A stretch of DNA of 64,000 bases, taken from assembly GCF_055900595.2 (NCBI RefSeq), contig NZ_CM148325.1. One strand, 5' to 3'. Positions 2,735-40,527 of the stretch are shown here, piece by piece. Made by a program: the position numbers and the translations under genes. The notes below the pieces were generated by a model, which did not search any database, was not told the origin of the DNA, and saw only the letters and a program-made list of their open reading frames with translations. The first letter of the stretch is position 1. Every line of letters begins with the position of its first letter.

Positions 2735-3588
2735 ATAAATCCGGCCTCCTGCATACGCGCTTCAATCCAGCGCCGCGCCTGAATAATCTCCAGCACCGGC
2801 TCTTTGGCTTTTTCGGTCCACATCTCAATCAGAAATGATCCGCGATAGTTCAGTTCATGCAGCGTTTTGAAGATACCAACGAAATCGACGCAGCCTTCGC
2901 CAAACGGCACGTCGCGGAACTGTCCGGGGCTATGATCGGTCACTGGCTGGGTATCTTTCAGGTGGATGGCGGCGATACGGTCAATGCCCAGTTTCAGTTC
3001 GGCGGGAACATCATTGCCCCACGCGCTAAGGTTGCCGACGTCCGGGTAAACAGTGAACCACGGCGAAGCGAGTATCTCGTCCCATTTTTTCCATTTGCTG
3101 ATGGAGTTCATAAACGCGGTATCCATAATCTCCACCGCCAGCATCACCTGCGCGGCGGCTGCCTGTTCAACCGCCCACGCCAGCCCTTCGGCAAAACGTT
3201 GCTGCGTGCCTTCGTCATGGGCTTCGTAATAGACGTCGTAGCCCGCCAGTTGAATGGTGCGAATACCGAGATCGCGCGCCAGACGAATTGCTTTACTCAT
3301 GATCTCCCGTGCTCGCTGGCGTGCCGCGTCGTCACGGCTACCAAAGGGAAAACGACGATGTGCGGACAGGCACATCGACGGGATCCCAACACCCGTTTCG
3401 ATCATCGCGGCAACCAGCGAAGTCCTTTGTGCGGCGCTCCAGTCAAGGCGCGACAGACGCTCGTCGGTTTCATCCACCGACATTTCGACAAAATCAAAAC
3501 CGCAGCTTTTTGCCAGCACCAGCCGCTCCGGCCAGGAGAGATCTTTCGCCAGCGCTTTTTCATAAATCCCTAACGGATGATTACGCAC
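2728..3588 (-). CDS. sgbU: L-xylulose-5-phosphate 3-epimerase
   Basis: ORF track gives 2728..3621; the GTG at 3588 preceded by GGGGAGG gives the expected 286-aa product starting (M)[25 protein letters not shown]-barrel sugar-phosphate isomerase pattern. Confidence 0.85.
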
Positions 3589-4243
3589 GCGCGCCTCCCC
3601 AGATAGCGTCGATTTGCGCATGGAAGTCGGCAGCTACCTGTGCCGGATTTGCTGCGCCTGCCAGTGCTCGTCCGGCAATAAATGCCTTCACGCGGATATC
3701 TTTAAACAGCGGCAGGTCAGCAGGCGTAATCCCGCCGGTAATGGAAAGCTCAAGGCCGATATCGGAAAGCGCCTTCATGCGTGCCAGATCGGCTTCGCCC
3801 CACTGTTGCCCGCTGGCCTGCGCGTCACGACCACGATGATAAATCGCCTGCCGCACGCCAATACGATGCCAGTCGCGGGCGTCGTCCAGCGTCCAGTTAC
3901 CAAAAAGCTCTATCTGGATTTCACCACCGCAGCGTTGCGCCATAGCGTGGCCTTTTTCCACCGTCGCGAGCGGTGCGGCGCAGATGATGGTCATCCAGTT
4001 AGCGCCTGCGCCAAACGCCTGTTGCGCGAGCGTTTCACCAGCATCGGCGACCTTCCAGTCAGCAACGATGATTTTGTCCGGGCACTGTTCGCGCAAGGCT
4101 TTCACCGCGCCAAGCCCTTCGTTTAAACAGAGAATAGTGCCTGCTTCGACGATATCGACGCTGTCTTTTAACAGCGCAACGTCGCGCTGTGCGGCTTCAA
4201 GTGATGAGTGGTCGAGGGCCAGTTGCAGAAGTGGTCTGCTCAT
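3581..4243 (-). CDS. sgbH: 3-keto-L-gulonate-6-phosphate decarboxylase
   Basis: 220-aa [39 protein letters not shown]...; overlaps sgbU start by 8 bp. Confidence 0.9.
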
Positions 4244-15643: not shown

Positions 15644-16468
15644 ATGATTTTGACTCCCATACGACGATATGGGGCGATGATTCTTATGTTACTCACTCTG
15701 GTGTTTTCGAGTGAGGTGTTAGCGAAGACGCACACAACAACAGCGAGTCAAAAGTCCCACTTAATTAAAGCTAGTAATAAACAGGTAAGCAGTAAACAAG
15801 AGTATTCTCGCAATAGTGCAAAGAGTAGTTCACTTCCTGATTTGCGAAAATACCCTTCCGGAACACCAAGGAAAAAAGCGTTTCTCCGGACCGTAATGCC
15901 TTACATTACCAGCCAAAATGCGGCCATTACTGCGGAACGTAACTGGCTCATTTCAAAACAGTATCAGGGCCAATGGTCACCTGCTGAGCGTGCGCGTCTG
16001 AAAGACATCGCCAAACGCTACAAGGTGAAGTGGTCTGGTAATACGCGAAAAATCCCGTGGAATACCTTGCTTGAACGCGTAGACATTATCCCTACCAGTA
16101 TGGTAGCGACGATGGCTGCAGCAGAAAGCGGTTGGGGAACGTCGAAGCTGGCGCGCAACAACAACAATCTGTTCGGCATGAAATGCATGAAAGGACGTTG
16201 TACTAATGCGCCGGGTAAAGTGAAGGGGTACTCACAGTTTAGTTCTGTCAAAGAATCGGTGAGCGCCTATGTCACTAACCTGAATACTCACCCTGCTTAC
16301 TCTTCGTTCCGTAAATCGCGTGCACAACTGCGTAAAGCGGATCAGGAAGTGACTGCCACAGCGATGATTCACAAGCTGAAGGGCTACTCGACCAAAGGGA
16401 AGAGTTATAACAACTACCTGTTCGCAATGTACCAGGATAACCAACGGTTAATCGCGGCGCATATGTAA
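15644..16468 (+). CDS. bax: Bax-family protein (glucosaminidase-like domain)
   Basis: 274-aa ORF MILTPIRRYGAMILMLLTLVFSSEVLA... Confidence 0.85.
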   Translation: MILTPIRRYGAMILMLLTLVFSSEVLAKTHTTTASQKSHLIKASNKQVSSKQEYSRNSAKSSSLPDLRKYPSGTPRKKAFLRTVMPYITSQNAAITAERNWLISKQYQGQWSPAERARLKDIAKRYKVKWSGNTRKIPWNTLLERVDIIPTSMVATMAAAESGWGTSKLARNNNNLFGMKCMKGRCTNAPGKVKGYSQFSSVKESVSAYVTNLNTHPAYSSFRKSRAQLRKADQEVTATAMIHKLKGYSTKGKSYNNYLFAMYQDNQRLIAAHM

Positions 16469-38391: not shown

Positions 38392-39090
38392 ATGATCATA
38401 AAAAAAAGCGGTGGTCGCTGGCAGTTAAGCCTGCTGGCGAGCGTGGTAATCAGTGCCTTTTTTCTCAACACAGCTTACGCCTGGCAACAAGAATATATCG
38501 TTGATACGCAACCCGGACATTCCACAGAGCGCTACACCTGGGATAGCGATCATCAACCTGATTACAACGATATTCTGTCGCAACGTATTCAAAGTAGCCA
38601 AAGGGCGCTGGGACTGGAAGTCAATCTGGCGGAAGAAACCCCTGTGGATGTGACCAGCAGTATGAGTATGGGCTGGAATTTTCCTTTATATGAACAGGTT
38701 ACAACCGGCCCGGTCGCGGCATTACATTACGATGGTACAACCACCTCGATGTATAACGAGTTTGGCGACAGTACTACTACACTGACTGATCCGTTATGGC
38801 ATGCCAGCGTGAGTACCTTAGGCTGGCGTGTTGACTCCCGGCTTGGCGATCTCCGACCCTGGGCGCAAATCAGCTATAACCAGCAATTTGGCGAGAATAT
38901 CTGGAAGGCGCAATCAGGCTTAAGCCGGATGACGGCGACAAACCAGAACGGCAACTGGCTGGATGTCACGGTAGGTGCTGATATGTTGCTCAATCAAAAT
39001 ATTGCCGCCTACGCTGCGTTATCTCAGGCAGAAAATACCACGAACAATAATGACTATCTGTATACGATGGGGGTTAGTGCCAGATTTTAA
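38392..39090 (+). CDS. yhjY: YhjY, predicted outer-membrane beta-barrel (autotransporter-domain-like) protein
   Basis: 232 aa with signal peptide MIIKKSGGRWQLSLLASVVISAFFLNTAYA; C-terminal aromatic residue (…RF). Confidence 0.8.
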   Translation: MIIKKSGGRWQLSLLASVVISAFFLNTAYAWQQEYIVDTQPGHSTERYTWDSDHQPDYNDILSQRIQSSQRALGLEVNLAEETPVDVTSSMSMGWNFPLYEQVTTGPVAALHYDGTTTSMYNEFGDSTTTLTDPLWHASVSTLGWRVDSRLGDLRPWAQISYNQQFGENIWKAQSGLSRMTATNQNGNWLDVTVGADMLLNQNIAAYAALSQAENTTNNNDYLYTMGVSARF

Positions 39091-39204
39091 CGTAACAGTC
39101 ACAATTAAAACCATTGAATAACAACAGTTGTGGCGATAGTGGGTGCTAACTTACCAAATAATAAATTTGGTGAATAATTGTCACGTCATTCATTCCTGAA
39201 CTAA

Positions 39205-39235
39205 GGCATTTCATTCCGTTCTGATGGCATTTCAT
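39205..39235 (+). promoter_or_regulatory. Direct repeat GGCATTTCAT-N11-GGCATTTCAT upstream of yhjX (YpdB/LytTR-type response-regulator site)
   Basis: Two identical 10-mers at 39205..39214 and 39226..39235, about 85 bp upstream of the yhjX ATG; matches the motif reported for YpdB control of yhjX (from memory). Confidence 0.6.
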
Positions 39236-39318
39236 GCCGTTTTTCCCCAGGCATAAAGTGCACTTCGTTATGGTTGTCAGCAGAGATTTTTCCTTTTTAT
39301 TACTGCAGGAATACTGCC

Positions 39319-40527
39319 ATGACACCTTCAAATTATCAGCGTACTCGCTGGCTGACACTCATCGGTACTATCATTACCCAGTTTGCCCTGGGGTCGGTTT
39401 ATACCTGGAGTCTGTTTAACGGCGCGCTTTCTGCCAAGCTGGGGGCTCCGGTAAGCCAGGTTGCTTTCTCTTTCGGCTTGTTAAGTCTGGGGCTGGCAAT
39501 TTCGTCTTCTGTTGCGGGCAAATTGCAAGAACGTTTTGGTGTTAAACGCGTCACTATGGCTTCCGGCATTTTGCTGGGATTAGGTTTCTTCCTGACAGCA
39601 CATTCCAACAACCTGATGATGCTGTGGTTAAGCGCCGGTGTGTTGGTTGGTCTGGCGGATGGTGCGGGCTACCTGCTGACGCTCTCAAACTGCGTGAAGT
39701 GGTTCCCGGAGCGTAAGGGACTCATCTCTGCTTTCGCTATTGGTTCTTATGGACTTGGTAGTCTGGGTTTCAAATTTATCGATACGCAACTGTTGGAAAC
39801 GGTCGGTCTGGAAAAAACCTTTGTTATTTGGGGCGCGATTGTACTGGTGATGATTATCTTTGGCGCAACGTTAATGAAAGATGCGCCGAAACAGGAAGTG
39901 AAAACCAGCAATGGTGTGGTGGAGAAGGATTACACGCTGGCAGAGTCGATGCGTAAACCGCAGTACTGGATGTTAGCAGTTATGTTCCTGACTGCCTGCA
40001 TGAGTGGCCTGTATGTGATTGGCGTGGCGAAAGATATCGCTCAAAGTCTGGCGCATCTTGATGCAATTTCCGCAGCCAATGCTGTGACGGTTATTTCCAT
40101 CGCCAACCTTTCTGGTCGTCTGGTGCTGGGCATTCTGTCTGACAAAATCGCCCGTATCCGTGTTATCACCATTGGTCAGGTCATTTCGCTGGTGGGCATG
40201 GCGGCCCTGCTGTTTGCCCCATTGAATGCAGTGACGTTCTTTGCAGCGATTGCCTGCGTGGCATTTAACTTCGGCGGCACTATCACGGTGTTCCCGTCAC
40301 TGGTCAGTGAGTTCTTCGGCCTAAATAATCTGGCAAAAAACTACGGTGTGATTTACCTCGGTTTCGGTATCGGCAGCATTTGTGGTTCGATTATCGCTTC
40401 ACTGTTTGGCGGATTCTATGTGACTTTCTACGTGATTTTCGCCCTGCTGATTCTGTCACTGGCGCTTTCTACGACGATTCGCCAGCCAGAGCAGAAAATG
40501 TTGCGTGAGGCGCATGGCTCCCTTTAA
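39319..40527 (+). CDS. yhjX: MFS transporter (oxalate/formate antiporter family), pyruvate-inducible
   Basis: Start at MTPSNYQRTRWLTLIGTIITQFALGSVYTWS gives 402 aa; 12 predicted TM segments. Confidence 0.9.
   Translation: MTPSNYQRTRWLTLIGTIITQFALGSVYTWSLFNGALSAKLGAPVSQVAFSFGLLSLGLAISSSVAGKLQERFGVKRVTMASGILLGLGFFLTAHSNNLMMLWLSAGVLVGLADGAGYLLTLSNCVKWFPERKGLISAFAIGSYGLGSLGFKFIDTQLLETVGLEKTFVIWGAIVLVMIIFGATLMKDAPKQEVKTSNGVVEKDYTLAESMRKPQYWMLAVMFLTACMSGLYVIGVAKDIAQSLAHLDAISAANAVTVISIANLSGRLVLGILSDKIARIRVITIGQVISLVGMAALLFAPLNAVTFFAAIACVAFNFGGTITVFPSLVSEFFGLNNLAKNYGVIYLGFGIGSICGSIIASLFGGFYVTFYVIFALLILSLALSTTIRQPEQKMLREAHGSL

Follow-up and report, generated by a model that had tools for sequence, protein, structure and literature searches.

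The yhjX promoter carries the published YpdB (PyrR) operator and a possible third in-phase element

The 64,000-nt stretch of contig NZ_CM148325.1 analyzed here (the window) has the conserved gene order bisC-yiaC-tag-yhjY-yhjX-eptB, and the direct repeat under study lies between yhjY (38392-39090) and yhjX (39319-40527, + strand), the regulated gene. YhjX is an MFS transporter of the oxalate/formate antiporter family (annotation; MFS_1, TIGR00890, NF049980), intact at 402 aa and 98% identical to K-12 b3547. RefSeq names it 'L-lactate MFS transporter', by way of the NCBIfam SfMCT equivalog (344 bits vs. a cut-off of 320), while in the E. coli literature it figures as a putative transporter or exporter of pyruvate, with its substrate unproven. 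The mechanical list of open reading frames extended yhjX upstream to a TTG at 39274, for 417 aa. The annotated 402-aa start appears well placed on comparative grounds, being supported by a conserved Shine-Dalgarno sequence, AGGA (39307-39310, + strand, 8 nt before the ATG; GCAGGA in most orthologues), together with an ATG in all orthologues. That ATG occupies 39319-39321, and the boundary at 39320 given by the initial annotation needs correcting to 39319.

The sequence across the yhjX operator region reads cgtcattcattcctgaactaaGGCATTTCATtccgttctgatGGCATTTCATgccgtttttcc. Scanning both strands of the window, we found exactly two copies of the 10-mer GGCATTTCAT, at 39205-39214 and 39226-39235 (both + strand), and no further copy on either strand of the 64 kb. 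The intervening spacer is 11 nt (tccgttctgat), just as the initial annotation had described (two identical 10-mers with N11), and its figure of about 85 bp between repeat and yhjX start is acceptable, since we measured 83 nt from the end of the second copy to the ATG. The resemblance extends past the 10-mers: the 18-mers starting at 39205 and 39226, GGCATTTCATTCCGTTCT and GGCATTTCATGCCGTTTT, have 16 of their 18 positions in common, the period being 21 bp. The expected number of GGCATTTCAT copies per window is 0.28, and two or more copies appeared in 3 of 100 shuffles; when every exact 10-mer direct repeat was counted, whatever its sequence, at offsets between 11 and 40, the window held six, against a mean of 1.25 in shuffles. 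Because exact short-offset 10-mer repeats are thus not rare, the repeat by itself is weak evidence and statistically unremarkable. It is set apart from chance by being identical to a published operator and by its conservation at fixed spacing in 80 other promoters.

The arrangement GGCATTTCAT-N11-GGCATTTCAT is the YpdB motif of the yhjX promoter, PyhjX (Behr et al. 2016, PMC4847170); motif, 11-bp spacing and promoter location all agree with that paper, bearing out the initial proposal that the repeat matches the YpdB motif for pyruvate-induced yhjX. The upstream copy is an exact match to site A, the published high-affinity nucleating site (39205-39217, + strand; 10-mer 39205-39214, with the conserved unit GGCATTTCATTCC running on to 39217), and the downstream copy an exact match to site B, the published lower-affinity site (39226-39243, + strand; 10-mer 39226-39235, unit GGCATTTCATGCC, then a conserved T-tract at 39240-39243). 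The K-12 yhjX promoter with its sites A and B shares with the window the gene, the motif, the 11-bp spacer and the tag-yhjY-yhjX-eptB synteny. Fried et al. 2013 is reportedly the primary paper on these sites in E. coli K-12, where the current annotation calls ypdA and ypdB pyrS and pyrR. Over a 140-bp region the window differs from K-12 by two SNPs, at 39183 and 39279, neither of them in the motifs, and no functional difference is expected; from 39184 to the ATG, base 39279 is the single difference.

The oligonucleotide used in the published SPR work is the window sequence 39181-39239 save for base 39183 (A in the window, G in K-12). Activated YpdB bound site A first, with a KD of about 1 nM, and site B next, at about 21 nM; an oligonucleotide mutated in B was still bound (KD 23 nM), and mutation of A abolished binding of YpdB-D53E (PMC4847170). 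With 3 mM pyruvate, yhjX mRNA rose 678-fold (PMC7660256). We are accordingly highly confident that the repeat is the operator of PyhjX for YpdB (now PyrR), comprising sites A and B and serving pyruvate-responsive activation of yhjX, and we met nothing that contradicts this identification. The finding is correct but ordinary: the site is published, curated and already known, and its re-identification tells us that the usual control region for pyruvate-responsive yhjX expression is present in this strain, with little import beyond annotation.

Comparison between species adds more. We scanned one genome per species and obtained 80 orthologous yhjX loci, which with the window make 81 promoters spread over about 25 genera (Escherichia, Citrobacter, Enterobacter, Lelliottia, Kluyvera, Buttiauxella, Kosakonia, Cedecea, Klebsiella oxytoca and others); sequence logos were alignment-free, anchored on TCATGCC. 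Two motif copies with an exact 11-nt spacer were present in all 81. The constrained unit is not quite the 10-mer, however. It spans positions 2-13, GCATTTCAT[T/G]CC, a 12- to 13-mer with information near 2 bits per position, whereas position 1 of the 10-mer is free (G in 54 and T in 27 promoters at site A; T in 44 and G in 29 at site B). The three bases 3′ of the 10-mer are near-invariant (TCC at A, GCC at B), as is the TTTT that follows B, and the TCATGCC of site B is conserved. The 'perfect' repeat of the initial annotation thus stands as a description of this promoter, where the copies are identical, but identity is not what is constrained. Behr et al. 2017 described the motif as conserved in a few species, with YpdAB absent from Salmonella; no Salmonella yhjX locus was among the 80 orthologous loci retrieved.

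Variation within E. coli leads to the same point about position 1. Of 5426 E. coli genomes, 3599 match the 62-bp core at 39184-39245 at every base. The exact sequence type of strain G749, with T for G at the equivalent of 39205 and hence TGCATTTCAT at site A, was found in 1626 of the 5426 complete genomes (30%); the perfect repeat is therefore not species-wide, being a property of only about two thirds of E. coli.

The same comparison brought out a degenerate third repeat, GTCATTCATTCC (39185-39196, + strand), which we call site 0. Its offset from site A, on the upstream side, is exactly 21 bp, and it is near-invariant across the 81 promoters: its G, C, TTCAT and CC positions were each identical in 76-81 of 81 at the fixed -21 offset, while the flanking columns carried 0.2-0.5 bits. 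Sites 0 and A have TTCATTCC in common, in exact 21-bp register in 81/81 promoters, and measured against GGCATTTCATTCC site 0 resembles the motif minus one T; on a matrix built from A and B it scores 2.8 bits. Six loci lack yhjY and have tag upstream instead, and these retain site 0, which must therefore be part of the yhjX promoter rather than of the end of yhjY.

By motif score, four sites in the window reached 12.9 bits or more on either strand: A, B, an isolated intragenic site described below, and an inverted motif-like element, TGCACTTTATGCC (39250-39262, - strand, 12.9 bits), situated downstream of site B and upstream of the likely -10. An inverted element of at least 8 bits occupied the same position in 29 of the 81 promoters. 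In Kosakonia, Phytobacter and Pseudescherichia the sequence there is GGCATGAAATGC, the exact reverse complement of GCATTTCATGCC; among the 81 promoters, the element was absent from the Enterobacter and Lelliottia group. To speculate, if the element were a YpdB site, its place in the promoter spacer would point to repression.

A candidate -10 element stands at a constant distance from site B. Measured start to start, 42-43 nt separate site B from a TAnnnT hexamer in 80 of the 81 promoters (TATGGT at 39269-39274, + strand, in the window; TATCGT, TATTGT or TACTCT elsewhere), whereas the interval between hexamer and ATG can be anything from 25 to 45 nt. Since its spacing is fixed relative to the activator site and variable relative to the coding region, TATGGT is likely the -10, though a weak one. 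A scan for consensus promoters called nothing at TATGGT, and there is no -35-like hexamer there, which fits dependence on an activator. Counting from this -10 would put B, A and site 0 at about -49, -70 and -91 (centres), all facing the same side of the helix, and B would border on the -35 region. No transcription start site for yhjX was listed in the Cappable-seq supplements (K-12 coordinates, both genome versions) or in accessible literature.

Other promoter candidates were rejected. The sole match of the consensus scan, TTACCA-16-AATAAT at 39151-39178, lies upstream of the operator, lacks conservation from genus to genus and does not exceed chance level, so we rejected it as the regulated promoter. 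As for TAAAGT at 39254-39259 as a -10, the -10-like hexamers of this part shift or vanish in other genera, whereas the TAnnnT at 39269 stays in place. A perfect AT-rich palindrome, ACCAAAT-AATAA-ATTTGGT (39153-39171), overlaps the 39151-39178 match immediately before the operator; it is conserved within Escherichia and not in other genera.

The regulatory genes ypdAB are located outside the window, and we judged their likely presence in its strain from E400634 (human stool, Kenya), to which 22 kb of the window (30001-52000) is 100% identical. E400634 has intact ypdA, ypdB and ypdC. Its YpdA is 100% identical to that of K-12, and its YpdB matches at 242 of 244 residues, with both differences in the linker and with the Response_reg (PF00072) and LytTR (PF04397; E = 2.3e-34) domains. 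More generally, ypdAB was found in 5414 of 5426 complete E. coli genomes (at least 80% coverage). With yhjX intact, the promoter near-identical to that of K-12 and ypdA and ypdB intact in E400634, we agree on sequence grounds with the initial annotation that the site is intact and that the pyruvate-responsive circuit is probably functional in this strain.

The course of activation can be put together from published and comparative data. In the published work, extracellular pyruvate activates the kinase YpdA (BtsS in uropathogenic E. coli), activated YpdB fills A (39205-39217) before B (39226-39238), and yhjX transcription is induced. With their centres 21 bp apart, or two helical turns, site 0, A and B would be in phase and present themselves on one DNA face, at a fixed distance upstream of the weak, -35-less TATGGT. 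A YpdB protomer at B may abut the -35 region and recruit RNA polymerase, and site 0 would probably aid nucleation at A.

The published account includes the site 0 sequence in its SPR oligonucleotide, yet a third site goes unmentioned; the difference between A and B, unexpected for identical sites, was ascribed there to flanking nucleotides and curvature (PMC4847170). The conservation of site 0 may point to a third YpdB contact or helper site, and such a site could explain why binding is nucleated by A but not by the identical B. The published mutants fit a three-site arrangement, because in the B mutant 0 and A remain neighbours (and binding persists), whereas in the A mutant the two remaining elements, 0 and B, are separated by 42 bp (and binding is lost). 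The A-mutant data also mean that site 0 is not autonomous, since no binding occurred with 0 and B intact. We put forward, tentatively and as something short of an even bet, that the operator is tripartite rather than bipartite, with site 0 as the third YpdB contact that makes A nucleate, and that the inverted copy at 39250-39262 could be a shut-off site in pulsed expression. If this is true, the 'AB-BA' asymmetry of identical 10-mers would be reinterpreted.

The strongest competing account, possible to much the same degree, is that site 0 (39185-39196) is no YpdB site but serves a different, unrelated factor or is an element of DNA structure. Its missing motif T and its low score on the A/B matrix speak for this, as does the oligonucleotide with site 0 and B intact and A mutated, which bound no YpdB-D53E (PMC4847170). 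What argues otherwise is the sequence that site 0 and site A share, in exact register at 21 bp, throughout the 81 promoters; B, a perfect copy, likewise fails to bind alone (PMC4847170), and since B too is non-autonomous, such a failure is not diagnostic for site 0.

A second alternative accepts the operator and assigns it primarily to the paralogue BtsR, or to another factor such as YpdC or CRP, in place of YpdB. The BtsR (YehT) operator of btsT/yjiY belongs to a paralogous pyruvate-sensing LytS/LytTR system and follows the same repeat-spacer-repeat logic as PyhjX. The BtsR recognition repeat is said to differ from that of YpdB (Kraxenberger 2012). The initial annotation had treated the YpdB and BtsR motifs as one; its 'YpdB/BtsR consensus' should not serve as a single motif. 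Cross-connection of the two pyruvate systems speaks for this alternative: in uropathogenic E. coli, the non-cognate BtsS was reported to act as input kinase on YpdB for the yhjX promoter, and yhjX induction there requires BtsS and YpdB (PMC9765748). That same study nevertheless keeps the DNA-binding role for YpdB, and the BtsR-controlled yjiY promoter was the negative control for YpdB binding in the SPR study (PMC4847170). For CRP, a CRP-like site overlapping site 0 was considered and rejected, as positions 39179-39184 are poorly conserved. We regard a primary role for any of these factors as very improbable and retain YpdB as the regulator.

Least credible, with next to no chance of being right, is a chance or neutral 21-bp tandem duplication without regulatory role, for which the six exact short-offset 10-mer repeats in the window and the duplication-like 16/18 extended identity might be cited, but which is refuted by the published binding and mutational data and by near-invariance at fixed spacing through 81 promoters of about 25 genera with adjoining columns unconstrained; duplication is possible as the origin of the repeats.

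The YpdB operator of PyhjX can also be set against LytTR operators in general. Those of AgrA (P2/P3), ComE, VirR (boxes) and PlnC/D consist of two direct repeats of 9-11 nt, 11-13 nt apart, before a promoter with a poor -35 (PMC4847170). PyhjX has this LytTR-type architecture, with 10-nt repeats, an 11-nt spacer and no consensus sigma-70 promoter downstream, and shares no common consensus sequence with the operators of the other LytTR regulators. It differs from them in that the comparative data indicate three in-phase elements, with an inverted copy in addition in some genera. These comparative refinements (the conserved unit, the third in-phase repeat, the -10 spacing and the natural variants) are small and testable in what is a well-studied LytTR model, and they could alter the reading of the published sequential-binding model.

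The isolated intragenic site mentioned above is a near-perfect unit, TGCATTTCATGCC (16175-16187, - strand, 23.0 bits), antisense inside a 274-aa open reading frame (15644-16468) that we take, from its length and map position, to be bax. No partner copy was found 21 bp from it. Exact matches to the 12-base core GCATTTCAT[T/G]CC should number about 0.015 per window, and we consider this copy probably a chance occurrence.

Two oddities came up among the loci examined. On one contig labelled 'Chryseobacterium sp. 18061' (CACSKA010000004.1) there is an enterobacterial tag-yhjY-yhjX-eptB locus that scarcely differs from the one in 'Citrobacter sp. 18056', and the assembly is probably mislabelled or contaminated. 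In strain DX6 (NZ_CP126345.1; extracted locus 3001-3830) an IS1 has inserted within site B, duplicating 9 bp of target (TGGCATTTC) and putting about 0.8 kb between site 0 plus A and an intact B with its promoter, and constituting a natural operator-disruption mutant.
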